From the IMG/VR virus record IMGVR_UViG_3300012983_001691, positions 1 to 4,116 of that record: a stretch of 4,116 bases of DNA; one strand, 5' to 3'. The DNA is from a virus. Taxonomy: Duplodnaviria; Heunggongvirae; Uroviricota; Caudoviricetes. Position numbers and translations under genes: made by a program. Positions 1 through 4,116 of this stretch are shown in pieces. The notes under the pieces were generated by a model. That model was not told where the DNA came from. It made no database searches and saw only the letters and a list, made by a program, of their open reading frames with translations. Each line of letters starts with the position of its first letter. Position 1 is the first letter of the stretch.

Positions 1-147
1 CAAAAGGCGATGTTAATCGCCCTGATCGTCATCTGTTTAACCGTCATAGTGACGGCACTGGTAACGAGGAAAGACCTCTGCGAGGTACGAATCCGAACCG
101 GCCAGACGGAGGTCGCTGTCTTCGTAGACTACGAATCTAGAGAGTAA
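1..147 (+). CDS. hokD: Hok/Gef-family small membrane toxin, 3' portion (start codon lies upstream of the window)
   Basis: Frame 1 from base 1 translates QKAMLIALIVICLTVIVTALVTRKDLCEVRIRTGQTEVAVFVDYESRE, stop TAA at 145-147. This is near-identical to my recollection of E. coli HokD/RelF (…KAMLIALIVICLTVIVTALVTRKDLCEVRIRTGQTEVAVF…), with a hydrophobic transmembrane helix then a conserved C-terminus. The ORF track misses it because it is 5'-truncated by the window edge. Confidence 0.8.
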   Translation, partial: QKAMLIALIVICLTVIVTALVTRKDLCEVRIRTGQTEVAVFVDYESRE

Positions 148-156
148 GAGTGACCA

Positions 157-178
157 GGCGGGAGAGAAATCTCCCGCC
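157..178 (+). other. GC-rich stem-loop in the hok 3' UTR (9-bp stem GGCGGGAGA/TCTCCCGCC, GAAA tetraloop)
   Basis: Perfect inverted repeat 157-165 / 170-178 around a 4-nt GAAA loop, 10 nt after the hok stop. No T-run follows, so it looks like an mRNA 3' stability or fold-back element rather than a terminator. Confidence 0.45.
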
Positions 179-207
179 ACCTCTGATGAGTCAGGCATCC
201 TCAACGC

Positions 208-245
208 ACCCGCACTTAACCAGCTTTGGCGGGTATATTTTATTT
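208..245 (+). terminator. Candidate terminator of the hok transcript
   Basis: Stem ACCCGC (208-213) / GCGGGT (229-234) followed by U-rich ATATTTTATTTG (235-246). The loop is large (15 nt), so this is only moderate. Confidence 0.35.
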
Positions 246-529
246 GTGAATATTTTTATAAAAATAATGCCCACGCACAGCATAAAACAAAAAGTATTAC
301 AGATAAAAAAGGAACGTAATGTGCAGATTTGTTGTTTTCCATATTTACTCACCTTAATATGATTAATCCTGATAGGGTTGTTATTTCAGCGGTTTTCAAA
401 TGAGATATTATGGTGATTTGGCAGATTTGCATAACATTAAAATTTAATTTGTTTAACCGCTTTTAATAATAAGCGTTGTTTTTATCCCAGCAATCTGTTG
501 TTTGGTTTTTATTCCATCAATGTGGGGGC

Positions 530-557
530 TTTACACTGGAATCAGTTTATTTATACT
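530..557 (+). promoter_or_regulatory. Candidate sigma70 promoter for the DUF1367/YbcO/Q operon
   Basis: TTTACA (530-535), 16-bp spacer, TATACT (552-557), about 58 bp upstream of the ATG at 616 in an AT-rich region. Found by eye; no scoring matrix applied. Confidence 0.3.
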
Positions 558-615
558 TTATACGTCAGCCTGAACAACTGGCATCTGCTGCACTGCGCCA
601 TCGAGAGATTGAGAA

Positions 616-1215
616 ATGGCGCATATACAACTGGTCAAACAAACCTCTTCTGGTTTACTTCTCCCGGCGACGCCGGAGAGTTGCGATTTTCTGCATCAAA
701 TCAAAATAGGTGAGTGGATACACGCAGACTTTAAGCGTGTGCGTAACTACGCATTCCACAAGCGTTTTTTCAAACTCCTGCAACTGGGATTCGATTACTG
801 GACTCCGGTCGGTGGGGCGATCACGCCTCGCGAACGAGAACTGCTGTCTGGTTTCGTGGATTACCTGTGCGAATCAGTTGGTCGGGAACACACACCAGCC
901 CTGAGTGATGCCGCAGAGCAATACCTTAACACCGTTGCGACTCGCAGAACCCGGGATACGGCCTTACTCAAGTCATTTGACGCTTTTCGCGAATGGATAA
1001 CCATTCAGGCCGGATTTTACACCGAGCATTTTTATCCGGACGGTAGCCGTGGACGCCGGGCGAAATCCATCGCTTTTGCGAATATGGACGAAACCGAGTT
1101 TCAGCAGGTTTATAAATCTGTACTGAATGTGCTGTGGAACTGGATCCTGTTCCGTAAATTTTCCTCTCCGGAGGAAGTCGAAAATGTGGTCGCACAGTTA
1201 CTGGAGTTTGCGTAA
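616..1215 (+). CDS. Phage protein of unknown function, DUF1367-like (199 aa)
   Basis: ATG at 616 preceded by a purine-rich GAGAG; the 199-codon ORF has diverse, protein-like composition. Its stop TAA (1213-1215) overlaps the next ATG (TAATG). The family assignment is by recollection of ~200-aa prophage proteins found next to DUF1364 genes and needs an HMM search. Confidence 0.8.
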   Translation: MAHIQLVKQTSSGLLLPATPESCDFLHQIKIGEWIHADFKRVRNYAFHKRFFKLLQLGFDYWTPVGGAITPRERELLSGFVDYLCESVGREHTPALSDAAEQYLNTVATRRTRDTALLKSFDAFREWITIQAGFYTEHFYPDGSRGRRAKSIAFANMDETEFQQVYKSVLNVLWNWILFRKFSSPEEVENVVAQLLEFA

Positions 1216-1505
1216 TGGTGGATTTACGTAAAGCGGCGCGGGGGCAGATGTGCACCATCAGAATTCCTGGCTACTGCAATCACAATCCCGAAACTTCTGT
1301 GCTGGCGCATTACCGACTGGCGGGGACGTGCGGAACAGCGACAAAACCACACGATATGCAGGCAGCGATTGCCTGTAGATCGTGCCACGATTTAATCGAC
1401 GGGCGGGTAAAAACCAGTGATTACACCAAAGAAGAATTACGCCTGATGCATGCAGAAGGTGTTTTTCGCACACAAGAAATCTGGAGAAAGGAGGGATATT
1501 TATGA
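1215..1505 (+). CDS. ybcO: YbcO-like protein (DUF1364), putative metal-binding nuclease-like protein (96 aa)
   Basis: ATG 1215 with GGAG at 1203-1206. The translation MVDLRKAARGQMCTIRIPGYCNHNPETSVLAHYRL…IACRSCHDLIDGR has the same length and Cys/His pattern as E. coli DLP12 YbcO as I recall it. Stop TGA (1503-1505) overlaps the next start in an ATGA arrangement. Confidence 0.8.
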   Translation: MVDLRKAARGQMCTIRIPGYCNHNPETSVLAHYRLAGTCGTATKPHDMQAAIACRSCHDLIDGRVKTSDYTKEELRLMHAEGVFRTQEIWRKEGYL

Positions 1506-2056
1506 TTTACCCAACGAATACAGGAAAAAGCGGAGAACACCTTCGTCTCACTACGCTGGAAAGTGTCTGGATTCAGGGAAAACTACGTATGTGGGGGCGC
1601 TGGTCATATATTGGTGGTGGCAGGTCAGGAAATATGTTCAATCAGTTGTTGGCATCCAAAAAATTGACGAAAACAGCCATCAATGAAGCCCTGCGCAGAA
1701 TGAAAAAAGCGGGAATAGAGAAACCTGAGCTGGAAGCGTTTTTGCGAGAGATGATCAATGGTAAGCAAAAGAGCTGGCTGGCGCATTGTACTGATGCAGA
1801 GGCGTTATGTATTGATCGGGTTATAAGTGAGGTGCTGGCAGAACACCCAGGATTGATTTGTATCCTCCGGCAACGATATGAAGGGCGGGGGATGACTAAG
1901 CGAAAAATGGCTGAATTGCTGAATGATTCACACCCTGAGTGGTGTTACGCCACGTGCCGTAATCGCATAGATGCGTGGTTGAAAATGGCAGAGTTTATGC
2001 TCTATCTGCCGATGCGTGATGCATTCTCTTCCGGGGATCTAAAAACCGTCTGTTGA
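1502..2056 (+). CDS. Late-gene antiterminator Q-like protein (184 aa)
   Basis: ATG 1502 with strong SD GGAGG (1490-1494), translationally coupled to the upstream gene. A promoter-like element and terminator lie immediately downstream, and a holin gene follows, which is the canonical position of Q. Motifs (WGRWSY…, YEGRGMTKRKMAELL…) resemble the phage 82/21-type Q family as I recall it, not the lambda Q zinc-finger type. Confidence 0.65.
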   Translation: MIYPTNTGKSGEHLRLTTLESVWIQGKLRMWGRWSYIGGGRSGNMFNQLLASKKLTKTAINEALRRMKKAGIEKPELEAFLREMINGKQKSWLAHCTDAEALCIDRVISEVLAEHPGLICILRQRYEGRGMTKRKMAELLNDSHPEWCYATCRNRIDAWLKMAEFMLYLPMRDAFSSGDLKTVC

Positions 2057-2082
2057 CTCAATCTGTTATCCGGGGCTATATT
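2053..2082 (+). promoter_or_regulatory. pR'-like late promoter overlapping the Q stop codon (candidate Q-utilisation region)
   Basis: TTGACT (2053-2058, overlapping the Q stop TGA 2054-2056), 18-bp spacer, TATATT (2077-2082). Lambda pR' also has a TTGACT -35, as I recall. A small hairpin follows in the predicted early transcript (CGCCAG 2090-2095 / CTGGCG 2102-2107). Confidence 0.5.
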
Positions 2083-2143
2083 CCTCACGCGCCAGCAAAA
2101 TCTGGCGTCGGGATTGGCGTCCTGGATAGAGACCGCGACAGAT

Positions 2144-2165
2144 ACACGCCGCGAGCGTGTTTTTT
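2144..2165 (+). terminator. tR'-like intrinsic terminator about 75 nt downstream of the late promoter
   Basis: Stem ACACGC (2144-2149) / GCGTGT (2155-2160), 5-nt loop, then TTTTT (2161-2165). With the promoter it would give a short 6S-like leader RNA unless Q-modified polymerase reads through. Confidence 0.5.
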
Positions 2166-2326
2166 ATTGTCGTATGCACGCGCACATCTGAATTATGGTG
2201 GGCTGTGTGGGGGCGGAGAGATCCGCGCCGGTCGGTTTCCCGGTTACGCCAACCCTGCACAGTTCACCACCAGACGATTGGCGTCGTCGGTGGTGAGTTA
2301 TTAAGAAACCACCAGAGGGCGTCATT

Positions 2327-2938
2327 ATGACAACTCAAATTTCTGTTGAAACTCTCTCCCCGATCACCCATAACCAGATTCCTGTTATTACCACCGAACT
2401 TTTGGCGCAGCTTTACGGCACTGAGCCGGTGCGTATTCGCCAGAATCATCATGAGAACAAAGTACGCTTCGTTGAAGGGAAACACTTTTTCAAAGTTGTT
2501 GGTAATGACCTTAAAGAATTGCGGGTAGCTTTAAACTACTCACAAAATTTGCGGGTTACTTTAAGTAACTCACAAAATTTGCAACCATCTTTAAGAGGGT
2601 TACAAATTTCCCCGAAAGCCCGCTCCCTCATACTCTGGACAGAACGCGGAGCAGCCCGTCATGCCAAAATGCTCGAAACCGATCAGGCGTGGGATGTGTT
2701 CGAAAGACTGGAAGACTGCTATTTCAGACAAAAGGATCCGTCAGCGCCAGTTTCATGCCAGAAAAGTTACGACACGCGAGTTCTCTGTTATCAGCAAGGC
2801 GGTGTCACTGTTTCCACAATTCAGTTGCGGGATGATGATATTGTTATTTCCCTTGAGTCATGGCTGGAACTGGCGAGAGCCAATGGTTGGTTTGTTGTTC
2901 GCAGAGATAAACTGGTGGAAAGGCTGATGCAGCTTTAA
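2327..2938 (+). CDS. ORF6N-domain protein (KilA-N/Bro-N-related, antirepressor-like) with unknown C-terminal domain (203 aa)
   Basis: ATG 2327 with SD GAGGG (2315-2319). The N-terminal segment …IPVITTELLAQLYGTEPVRIRQNHHENKVRFVEGKHFFKVVGNDLKEL… matches the ORF6N consensus as I recall it (LA-LYGV…RN…RFP-DF-F-LT…E), and the later …LILWTERGAARHAKML… matches the second half of that domain. Residues ~135-203 match nothing I recognise. Confidence 0.8.
   Translation: MTTQISVETLSPITHNQIPVITTELLAQLYGTEPVRIRQNHHENKVRFVEGKHFFKVVGNDLKELRVALNYSQNLRVTLSNSQNLQPSLRGLQISPKARSLILWTERGAARHAKMLETDQAWDVFERLEDCYFRQKDPSAPVSCQKSYDTRVLCYQQGGVTVSTIQLRDDDIVISLESWLELARANGWFVVRRDKLVERLMQL
2521..2610 (+). repeat. Three tandem 30-bp direct repeats inside the ORF6N-domain gene, in frame
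   Basis: Unit 1 (2521-2550) and unit 2 (2551-2580) are 25/30 identical; unit 3 (2581-2610) is degenerate but keeps the CTTTAAG and ACAAA-TT cores. They encode LRVALNYSQN / LRVTLSNSQN / LQPSLRGLQI. An inverted copy of the core (CTTAAAG) sits at 2510-2516. Confidence 0.85.
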
Positions 2939-3033
2939 AAAAGTTCTTGCAATTTTAGCCATAAACTGCTTCAATTCCAGTACGCTTCGCAAAGCTGTAT
3001 CGCGAGGCGAATCAAGCGCATGAACTTTACCAG

Positions 3034-3063
3034 AACCCGCCATTGAGCGGGTTTTGTTGTTTC
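3034..3063 (+). terminator. Intrinsic terminator downstream of the ORF6N-domain gene
   Basis: Perfect 7-bp stem AACCCGC (3034-3040) / GCGGGTT (3047-3053), 6-nt loop, then a T-rich tract TTGTTGTTT. It is + strand specific, since the complementary strand lacks a T-run. Confidence 0.65.
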
Positions 3064-3075
3064 TGGAGAACACCC

Positions 3076-3306
3076 ATGAAATTTTATGAATTATCTTCTG
3101 ATTCCCGATCTCAGGCCAAAATCACACTGGGTCAGTTCATTGTGGCTCGGGCTAACCCGGGGGTGGATGATTTTGAAAATTTGGGGCATTGCATCGCTGC
3201 CGCGTTTATTGCGATGGAGCGCTATGAAAGCGCCCCTGAGGTTGGTGAGGGGCGTAGCGGGAACGGAATACCCGTTAATGGCGATCAAAACTCACTTCTT
3301 GATTAA
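3076..3306 (+). CDS. Hypothetical small protein (76 aa), uncertain
   Basis: ATG 3076 with SD GGAG (3064-3067), directly after the terminator. The translation MKFYELSSDSRSQAKITLGQFIVARANPGVDDFENLGHCIAAAFIAMERYES… has a plausible helical core and a Gly/Pro-rich tail. No homolog recognised. Its 3' end overlaps the minus-strand gene by 15 bp. Confidence 0.3.
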   Translation: MKFYELSSDSRSQAKITLGQFIVARANPGVDDFENLGHCIAAAFIAMERYESAPEVGEGRSGNGIPVNGDQNSLLD

Positions 3307-3570
3307 ATGCCATGAGCGATCTGCCGCTTGAGTGACTAGCACCCGAGGGTTCTTTTTTATTGTCCCAGCGATGGCTACAACTTCTTCTCGGACTGCGCGA
3401 GCAGATGCGTTTTTTTCGGCTGTGTACTCAGCGTCTGGAAGATAAAACCAGTTTCCTGCTCCATCTTGAATTTCGCGAAAGTATCTTCGGGATTCCATCG
3501 CCTCATGAAGGCGAGCGTAGTCATCGGATGATGCACCCACAAGCTCAACGCGGACAGTAAAACTAGCCAT
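3292..3570 (-). CDS. Hypothetical small protein (92 aa) encoded opposite to the rest of the window
   Basis: ATG at 3570-3568 (minus) is preceded by a near-consensus SD AAAGGAGT five nt upstream. The translation MASFTVRVELVGASSDDYARLHEAMESRRYFREIQDGAGNWFYLPDAEYTAEKNASARAVREEVVAIAGTIKKNPRVLVTQAADRSWHLIKK shows alternating beta/alpha-like segments. The longer 169-aa track ORF (to 3801) starts at TTG and its extension is low-complexity, so I take the internal ATG as the start. Confidence 0.6.
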   Translation of the reverse strand: MASFTVRVELVGASSDDYARLHEAMESRRYFREIQDGAGNWFYLPDAEYTAEKNASARAVREEVVAIAGTIKKNPRVLVTQAADRSWHLIKK

Positions 3571-3664
3571 ATATACTCCTTTAATTGATATGGTTACTTT
3601 TGGCGATTTAACGATATCAAACACGAGGATATACCGCCAGAAGCTTAATCTGGTACTCCATCTG

Positions 3665-3689
3665 GCCCTGGCATGTCCCGGGGCTTTTT
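3665..3689 (+). terminator. Intrinsic terminator about 100 bp upstream of the holin start
   Basis: Stem GCCCTGG (3665-3671) / CCGGGGC (3678-3684) with one G-U pair, 6-nt loop CATGTC, then TTTTT (3685-3689). Confidence 0.5.
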
Positions 3690-3787
3690 CGTTGTTAGGC
3701 TCCGGAAACATCCTCGACTTCTTGTGAGCAAGCCAGAGAGCCTGAATCTTACATTTAGCACCATCCGAACTTTCGGAGGTGAGGCTT

Positions 3788-4116
3788 ATGAAAATGCACA
3801 ATGTCCCTCATTCCTGGCCTGACTTACTGGAACTCTTACAAAGTTGGTGGCGTGGAGACACACCGCTGGGCGCAGTGATTATGTCGATCGTTATGGCTGG
3901 TTTGCGCATCGCCTATTTTGGCGGTGGTGGTGGCTGGAAGCGAAAAACGCTCGAGATTTTGCTATGTGGTGCTCTGACGCTGACCTTTGCATCCGCTCTT
4001 GAGTATGTCGGATGGCCTAAATCGCTTTCTGTTGCCATTGGTGGTGGCGTGGGGCTGATCGGTGTCGATGCTATTCGTGGGGCTGCAATGCGAGTAATCG
4101 GTAACAAATTTGGTAG
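3788..4116 (+). CDS. Lambda-S-like holin (class I, Phage_holin_3-like), 5' portion; continues past the window end
   Basis: ATG 3788 with SD GGAGGT (3774-3779). I translated it by hand: MKMHNVPHSWPDLLELLQSWWRGDTPLGAVIMSIVMAGLRIAYFGGGGGWKRKTLEILLCGALTLTFASALEYVGWPKSLSVAIGGGVGLIGVDAIRGAAMRVIGNKFG…, with no stop before base 4116. It has a Met-Lys-Met start and hydrophobic segments laid out like lambda S (MKM…AYLRGRYNGG…IGTDSIGSLIKRF). The ORF track omits it because it is open at the 3' end. Confidence 0.75.
   Translation, partial: MKMHNVPHSWPDLLELLQSWWRGDTPLGAVIMSIVMAGLRIAYFGGGGGWKRKTLEILLCGALTLTFASALEYVGWPKSLSVAIGGGVGLIGVDAIRGAAMRVIGNKFG

Follow-up and report, generated by a model that had tools for sequence, protein, structure and literature searches.

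What does a small gene do that lies against the direction of late transcription in the leader of a prophage late operon? The question is raised by a 4,116-nucleotide (nt) stretch of tailed-phage DNA (IMG/VR record IMGVR_UViG_3300012983_001691, positions 1 to 4,116), called the window below, which at 3292-3570 carries on its minus strand an open reading frame (ORF) of 92 amino acids (aa). We are almost certain that this ORF is a genuine gene and that it belongs to the YmfI family (PHROG 8894), by sequence a widespread, catalogued and uncharacterised phage family. Its product is predicted to be a ferredoxin-like protein whose closest likenesses are GhoS and Cas2, and the gene, which sits between the late promoter region and the lysis genes, appears among prophages as a compact, swappable cassette. 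The explanation that in our view best accounts for the locus as a whole, and that we put forward with a little less than even confidence, is an independently transcribed GhoS-like, RNA-directed protein in a convergent arrangement.

The 92-aa gene and its family

The argument draws on the following elements, given by position in the window.

3076-3306, plus strand: acidic 76-aa ORF, the coding sequence (CDS) WP_000675202.1 of the Prokaryotic Genome Annotation Pipeline (PGAP)
3216-3236, minus strand: hairpin GGGGCGC-N7-GCGCTCC, 56-76 nt past the stop codon of the 92-aa gene and inside the 76-aa ORF
3292-3570, minus strand: protein-coding gene for 92 aa (10.4 kDa, isoelectric point (pI) 8.05), YmfI family/PHROG 8894; PGAP CDS WP_001519807.1, a hypothetical protein of E. 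coli R1
3575-3582, minus strand: Shine-Dalgarno sequence AAAGGAGT, with a GGAG-to-ATG spacing of 5 nt
3585-3620: palindrome TTGATATGGTTA-N12-TAACGATATCAA, with 12-nt arms (3585-3596 and 3609-3620) that are 92% complementary
3611-3619, minus strand: putative extended -10 element TGATATCGT, starting 49 nt upstream of the ATG
3637-3653: hairpin CCAGA-N7-TCTGG, abutting the -35 position

The 92-aa ORF is nested in a 169-aa, TTG-initiated ORF on the same strand, and its boundaries are exactly those of WP_001519807.1 in NZ_CP031706.1. Every one of 18 aligned full-length homologs (36-85% identity) begins at the same Met, and the first residues read MASFTVRVEL or nearly so. The ATG start is therefore correct and the TTG extension spurious, as a preliminary description made from the window's sequence had proposed. 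The E. coli, Klebsiella and Serratia copies form a gapless alignment in which the differences by codon position are 13/12/40 between E. coli and Klebsiella, 25/25/55 between E. coli and Serratia and 28/23/57 for the remaining pairing. A 66-aa plus-strand ORF is also present at 3360-3560, and its being the only conserved frame is what the preliminary description had named as grounds for giving up the gene. This plus frame is interrupted by internal stops in both the Klebsiella and the Serratia copies and has no Pfam match, whereas the minus frame is annotated, conserved and confidently folded; the idea that the 92-aa ORF is not a gene, with either the plus frame or no frame at all being functional, is refuted by those stops and keeps a negligible probability.

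No other minus-strand CDS is annotated by PGAP inside the window, in agreement with the earlier view of the gene as the only one on that strand, and the gene is monocistronic. Its Shine-Dalgarno sequence, strong and suitably spaced, had been taken for the best of the window and in fact ranks third among the window's gene starts: the duplex of AAAGGAGT with the anti-Shine-Dalgarno sequence reaches -8.2 kcal/mol, while the Q-like gene has -12.1 and the holin gene -10.8.

The earlier statement that no family could be recognised gives way to a full-length match to PHROG 8894 (E 3e-38, 131 bits, residues 1-92 on profile positions 1-92 of 94). The NCBIfam model NF051477, 'YmfI family phage protein', is matched as well (E 4.8e-16, residues 1-89 on profile positions 1-88 of 89), and an alignment of the family compared with YmfI of K-12 gives an hhalign probability of 94.4% (E 9e-8, 81 columns) and an hmmsearch E of 4e-13. 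An exhaustive profile search with clusters defined at 50% identity returned 2,387 representative clusters at E<=1e-3, 1,464 of them at E<=1e-10, from Enterobacterales, Sphingomonadales, Caulobacter, Acidobacteria and Gemmatimonadota. Nearly all members are stand-alone proteins of 92-100 aa; apparent domain fusions among the longer representatives look like gene-calling run-ons, one from an integrase and the others without a Pfam domain. Across 131 representatives R7 and M25 are invariant, M1, L10, Y18, L21, H22, L44, P45, E48, Y49 and A68 are at least 95% conserved, and E9, D17, T80 and W87 at least 85%. Two observations weigh on the other side: at 59 bits the window protein falls far below the 140-bit equivalog cutoff of NF051477, which makes it homologous to YmfI and places it outside the equivalog, and it deviates at two common family residues (H11 to Val, G29 to Arg). 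A Pfam search with the window protein produced only a chance-level CHAD match, and a DNA search of the phage collection found no close relatives of the gene, with protein matches there at 34-40% identity only.

Predicted fold and likeness to GhoS

An AlphaFold2 (AF2) model built from a 19-sequence alignment has a predicted local distance difference test (pLDDT) score of 94.7, with strands at residues 2-9, 33-35, 41-43, 48-53 and 76-82 and helices at 15-27 and 57-69. The modelled fold is ferredoxin-like, of beta-alpha-beta-beta-beta-alpha-beta order, and appears closest to GhoS and Cas2. Several sequence results point in the same direction. The Pfam family GhoS (PF11080, formerly DUF2622) is weakly matched by 11 of the 19 relatives, with a best E of 8.7e-5; one representative scores 18.3 bits against this model, whose cutoff is 21, and two relatives are named GhoS or DUF2622 by NCBI. 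The available profile alignments to GhoS, in which the GhoS sequence used was identical to that of PDB 2LLZ, agree on one shared register. It pairs E9 with GhoS D15, and H22, which is nearly invariant, with GhoS R28, reported as the residue most important for endoribonuclease activity (PMC4010927).

Other results weigh against reading the protein as a relative of GhoS. The window protein itself has no match to PF11080 even at E<=1, the family compared with the single GhoS sequence reaches an hhalign probability of only 19%, and the residues at the two GhoS positions differ, His standing for Arg and Glu for Asp. No GhoT-like partner was found either, there being no small hydrophobic ORF on the minus strand beside the gene. 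Judged as a type V GhoS/GhoT system, the locus thus has a GhoS-type ferredoxin-like fold in the model and lacks an adjacent membrane-toxin gene. A profile search of PDB sequences gave nothing significant, with GhoS not retrieved and no sequence similarity to Cas2, and a fold search of the viral structures in BFVD gave no match below E 0.007. A co-directional 65-aa ORF at 3091-3288 was considered as a partner and set aside: it is broken in the Klebsiella copy and is not conserved.

Cassette, probable promoter and convergent neighbours

The window is a 100% match to the reverse strand of NZ_CP031706.1, positions 2624267-2628382, of E. coli strain R1 (cattle), and the prophage is of Rac-like lambdoid type, with racR, ydaS and ydaT close by. 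Besides the elements listed above it contains, from left to right:

left end: end of a hok gene
after the hok end: DUF1367 and DUF1364 (YbcO) genes
after these: DUF1133 Q-like antiterminator gene (Pfam and PGAP)
2053-2082: promoter-like site (promoter scan)
2076-2128: c4 antisense-RNA target a1b1, with the C4 RNA at 2191-2274 (Rfam-type RNA match)
2089-2165: isrK small RNA (sRNA), 75.5 bits, with a terminator at its end (2144-2160)
2327-2938: ORF6N anti-repressor gene
3031-3056, plus (late) strand: intrinsic-terminator-like site, ten pairs followed by a T-run, after the ORF6N gene and at the left flank of the two-gene segment
3664-3690, plus strand: intrinsic-terminator-like hairpin and T-run (terminator scan), between the promoter region of the 92-aa gene and the holin start
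3788: start of a lambda-family holin gene

Within the late-operon leader the gene thus runs antisense, with the Q/anti-repressor module before it and the holin gene beyond it; as the preliminary description had it, a plus-strand terminator-like site stands on either side (3031-3056 and 3664-3685). An equivalent of the 3664-3690 hairpin, with A-run and T-run, is found in the Klebsiella locus and in two further loci (L043 and L069). A third terminator-like hairpin with T-run lies on the plus strand inside the gene, at 3395-3410, antisense to the AEKNASARAV codons. As a stop signal it would be the third that late transcription meets ahead of the holin gene, and it may be incidental to the codons GAA AAA AAC.

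The gene shows a moron-like pattern of presence and absence. It was present in only 18 of the 5,426 complete E. coli genomes searched, always as one chromosomal copy. A sister prophage (L013, strain BCE049) is colinear with the window at 93-95% identity except over 3291-3581, the interval from the stop codon through the ribosome-binding site (RBS), in place of which it has 822 bp coding for a 189-aa protein on the late strand. Both flanks are kept there, namely the promoter-like region and, as far as the junction, the 76-aa ORF's codons; this suggests that the gene was replaced in that prophage. In Klebsiella aerogenes DNA homology with the window is limited to 3182-3619, and the copy resides in a different phage with another Q and another holin family. 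By sequence comparison, then, the cassette comprises RBS and CDS and is present or absent among otherwise near-identical prophages. The 189-aa late-strand gene, which has hydrophobic segments and is annotated elsewhere as a putative membrane protein, occupies the same slot in sister prophages and in phage vB_EcoS-666R9 (L013, 3805-4626; L014, 2720-3289); with another gene in the slot in these genomes, the interval from Q to holin is seen to be a site of cargo exchange with sharp junctions.

Does the cassette bring its own promoter, as had been presumed? Of 69 distinct upstream regions taken from family members, 40 have the pattern TGnTAnnnT with its first base 36-55 nt ahead of the start codon, compared with a mean of 1.4 and a maximum of 5 in shuffles and with 15 of 891 other genes of the same loci, the sequences compared being related to one another. 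The upstream regions of the family fall into three mutually unalignable leader types, and the pattern stands at that distance in all three; the columns without variation in the 26 'type 1' leaders read TTTCCA at the -35 and TAnnnT at the -10. The DNA homology of the Klebsiella cassette stops at 3619, the edge of the TGATATCGT element. Within the window the motif is not enriched (three found, two expected), so the case for a promoter is one of conserved position. Against it stand a weak -35 (TGGCGG/CTGGCG), a consensus scan upstream of the gene that found no sigma-70 site, and the presence of the promoter region 3582-3619 also in prophages that do not have the gene. Taken together, the position-conserved extended -10 element argues for the promoter that the preliminary description had supposed, and the gene probably has an autonomous promoter firing against late transcription.

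The palindrome at 3585-3620 covers the putative -10, which lies in its right arm, together with the predicted start region, and is partly conserved in 'type 3' leaders; it is possibly an operator. Its left arm contains on the plus strand, at 3586-3594, a mirror extended -10-like motif TGATATGGT that is aimed at the holin gene and faces the minus-strand element at 3611-3619 from 16 nt away. The arms of the hairpin at 3637-3653 change compensatorily in type 3 leaders (GCCAGA/TCTGGC, GCCAG/CTGGC and GCCGCT/AGCGGC; five sequences, compared by eye). A hairpin in the 5' untranslated region that would hide the AUG (inverted repeat I1) was discarded, since shuffled sequences fold just as well (z -0.36) and relatives do not conserve it, and a search of the leaders against Rfam found no known RNA family. 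The type 1 leaders (L025-L093, alignment A3) have features of their own 40-110 nt upstream of the YmfI-like starts. The 12-mer TTCCACAGTCAA occurs in them twice, one copy over the -35 and one just past the predicted start, each followed by AGGAA. Two covarying stems, interleaved with each other, are found 10-15 nt before the -35, S1 appearing as GCCGGG/CCCGGC or GCCTG/CAGGC and S2 as CCACG/CGTGG, CGGGA/TCCCG or CAGGG/CCCTG, and could form a pseudoknot or alternative hairpins. The leader of ymfI in e14 is a shorter version of these type 1 features.

At the other end of the gene, the last 15 nt of the 76-aa ORF overlap its 3' end (3292-3306). The 76-aa protein (pI 4.6) is PHROG 26625, and AF2 predicts for it, at a pLDDT of 67.6, two helices forming a hairpin and an acidic, disordered tail; its frame is open in the Klebsiella copy and weakly constrained. 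Inside this ORF, the hairpin at 3216-3236 is paired in 92.9% of cells across 12 loci, with changes on both sides at three pairs, a level that few shuffles reach, and one pair is G-U in eight of the 12 sequences, pairing only on the minus-strand RNA. The hairpin is possibly the 3'-end structure of the mRNA of the 92-aa gene. It is not followed by a U-run, a point that speaks against this role, and the overlapping coding constraint is a confounder, so that a 3'-end function is suggestive only.

Gene neighbourhoods were compared over 62 distinct loci of the family, with ORFs called by a crude procedure. Both neighbours are opposite in strand to the YmfI-like gene at most of these loci, and at 46 of the 62 a convergent downstream neighbour reaches 4-40 nt into its 3' end or stops no more than 6 nt away from it. 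These convergent partners are small ORFs, mostly acidic and of at least four families: that of the window (MKFxEL...AAFIAME; family A), the ELRKVVQELADEEGISF family, the YmfJ family and a Serratia-type family. A single partner superfamily was considered and dropped, because hhalign shows no similarity among the first three of these (families A, B and C). Partner type does not go with YmfI similarity: copies 55-60% identical to the window protein occur with the second family, and copies about 30% identical to it occur with the window's family. Every traced homolog of the 76-aa ORF (in Enterobacter and Kluyvera) lies 105-130 nt after a Q gene, of three Q families, and next to it comes a convergent YmfI-like gene that overlaps it by 4 nt. 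Two positions recur in the family, one beside the immunity repressor (e14, phiES15, pAEv1818 and the Serratia locus) and one directly upstream of, and divergent from, a holin gene, the latter in at least eight distinct loci with at least six holin families; in two loci the divergent upstream neighbour is Kil. The pair ymfI-ymfJ of e14 has been listed as a convergent excludon from RNA-seq (PMC12288877), and ymfI rises late in the SOS response (PMC11002266).

Some neighbourhoods of relatives deserve separate mention. Rfam isrJ and STnc100 sRNA genes lie on the operon strand just past the convergent partner ORF in two related viral contigs, at 4493-4564 of L050 and at 4626-4800 of L043, which ties the YmfI-like cassette to a Gifsy-type isrK...isrJ late-leader region in other phages. 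On contigs of Acidobacteria and of a delta-proteobacterial metagenome-assembled genome (L101 and L104), large co-directional genes follow some family members, coding for a 306-aa protein with a nucleotidyltransferase-like motif and for a 371-aa protein; the architecture with a convergent partner is therefore not universal.

The surroundings of the gene in strain R1 also hold the following. Immediately downstream of the Q-like gene, 2053-2938 constitutes a P1-type immI-like element and a Gifsy-1 isrK-anrP-like module. Within the ORF6N anti-repressor gene, a 30-bp tandem repeat of about two copies (2519-2595, 85% matches) codes for the peptide LRVALNYSQN / LRVTLSNSQN. Just upstream of the window (L001, 5781-7729) a SLATT-domain gene and a 'nucleotide-binding domain-containing' gene stand next to each other on the strand opposite to the prophage early genes and look like a defence-type module on the same prophage.

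Proposed function, rival readings and known systems

In the explanation that we favour, the 92-aa gene would be transcribed from the TGATATCGT extended -10 promoter, against the direction of late transcription. With a minus-strand promoter of its own the transcript would run antisense into the 76-aa ORF, an excludon-type arrangement, and it may interfere with the oncoming transcription that converges on it. The GhoS-like small protein would bind or cleave specific transcripts, not the mRNA of a linked toxin, at an RNA site that may consist of residues at the end of strand 1 and in helix 1 (R7, E9, D17, Y18 and H22) together with E48 and Y49. Taken by itself, the RNA-directed activity of the protein is a suggestion from its sequence that we make with considerable doubt.

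The protein could instead be a non-catalytic small binding module that inhibits or regulates a host or phage protein, for instance in superinfection exclusion, in anti-defence or in control of the product of the convergent acidic ORF, and its likeness to GhoS and Cas2 would then reflect merely a generic fold. We regard this as possible, if on the unlikely side. The marginal sequence similarity to GhoS would be expected under it, as would the regular pairing of a basic protein with small acidic ORFs and the linkage of the family A partner to YmfI-like genes down to about 30% identity. Both recurrent sites fit as well, positions next to the repressor and between Q and holin being the classic lambdoid sites of lysogen-expressed exclusion genes. 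The partners themselves speak the other way: families A, B and C are not detectably homologous, the failure of partner type to track YmfI similarity argues against a specific co-evolving protein pair, and the partner is present without the gene in L013. PADLOC matched no defence model, and we infer that the conserved polar residues R7, E9, D17, H22 and E48 resemble an active or ligand site more than an interface.

A function mainly at the level of RNA or DNA, with an outward promoter and an antisense transcript acting as excludon or insulator and the protein secondary, would lessen the extent to which late or early transcription, when not antiterminated, reads through into lethal genes (holin, kil). 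The antisense orientation to both neighbours in most of the 62 loci, the tight convergent neighbour in 46 of them and the published ymfI-ymfJ excludon (PMC12288877) all suit such a role, and so do the divergent holin genes, the two cases of Kil, and the late-strand terminators on both sides of the gene with one more inside it. We nevertheless consider it improbable: purifying selection acts on a protein found in some 2,400 clusters from several phyla, and a protein conserved with invariant residues is more than an antisense RNA role alone needs; in non-enteric genomes, moreover, the gene occurs in other contexts, with no convergent partner. A bolder version of the GhoS-like explanation, to which we give a still smaller chance, treats the YmfI family as 'orphan type V antitoxins' of temperate phages. 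Each would be an endoribonuclease of GhoS type, produced in the lysogen from a promoter belonging to the gene itself, and would destroy there whatever transcripts leak from the lethal genes of its own prophage (holin in the window, kil in other phages); related superinfecting phages might also be targets. The guard would be switched off at induction by the oncoming transcription together with the acidic ORF, whose expression would be confined to times when the early or late operon is active.

The 92-aa gene was already catalogued as a hypothetical protein, and its discovery is not news. The value of the analysis lies in linking a very large family to the GhoS/Cas2 fold and in bringing out a conserved architecture, in which the cassette stands alone and antisense behind a putative promoter of conserved position, overlaps small acidic ORFs convergently and occupies two recurrent sites. 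Should the family prove to be an RNA-targeting lysis guard or a superinfection-exclusion factor, a common prophage gene would gain a function and the type V antitoxin idea would extend beyond the single GhoST example. The orphan-antitoxin proposal, if true, would describe a GhoS-type mechanism without a dedicated toxin gene and would explain the recurrent antisense placement just upstream of holins belonging to at least six families. Failing all this, the gene counts as a further small accessory gene at a cargo site already known.

How does the gene compare with known systems? With GhoS (PDB 2LLZ), the type V antitoxin endoribonuclease, the predicted protein shares the order of secondary structure, a similar length and, in the alignments, the conserved E9 and H22 at D15 and R28. 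It differs in its low identity (14%), in reaching no Pfam GhoS score and in having His in place of the key Arg, and its gene is phage-borne, monocistronic and convergent, not operonic, with no ghoT-like membrane-toxin gene downstream. Cas2, the other system with this ferredoxin-like nuclease fold, serves CRISPR adaptation, whereas neither cas1 nor a CRISPR array lies near the 92-aa gene.

Lambda bor, a lambdoid moron, is transcribed against the late operon in lysogens. Like such morons, the 92-aa gene is an extra gene that is present or absent in sister prophages, runs against the surrounding operon, is flanked by terminators and has signs of its own promoter. Unlike them, it codes for a protein without signal peptide or membrane segment and with no known conversion phenotype, has no canonical terminator of its own, and has cassette ends that are unusually tight, formed by its stop codon and its RBS.

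The nearest named counterpart is YmfI of the K-12 prophage e14. The relation is a distant one in bits, ymfI lies in the early-left region by the repressor whereas the 92-aa gene lies between Q and holin, the partner is YmfJ in e14 and a 76-aa protein of family A here, and the leader types also differ. What the two have in common is homology over the whole domain, the same size class, a convergent overlap with a small ORF (ymfJ in e14) and an extended -10 element upstream.

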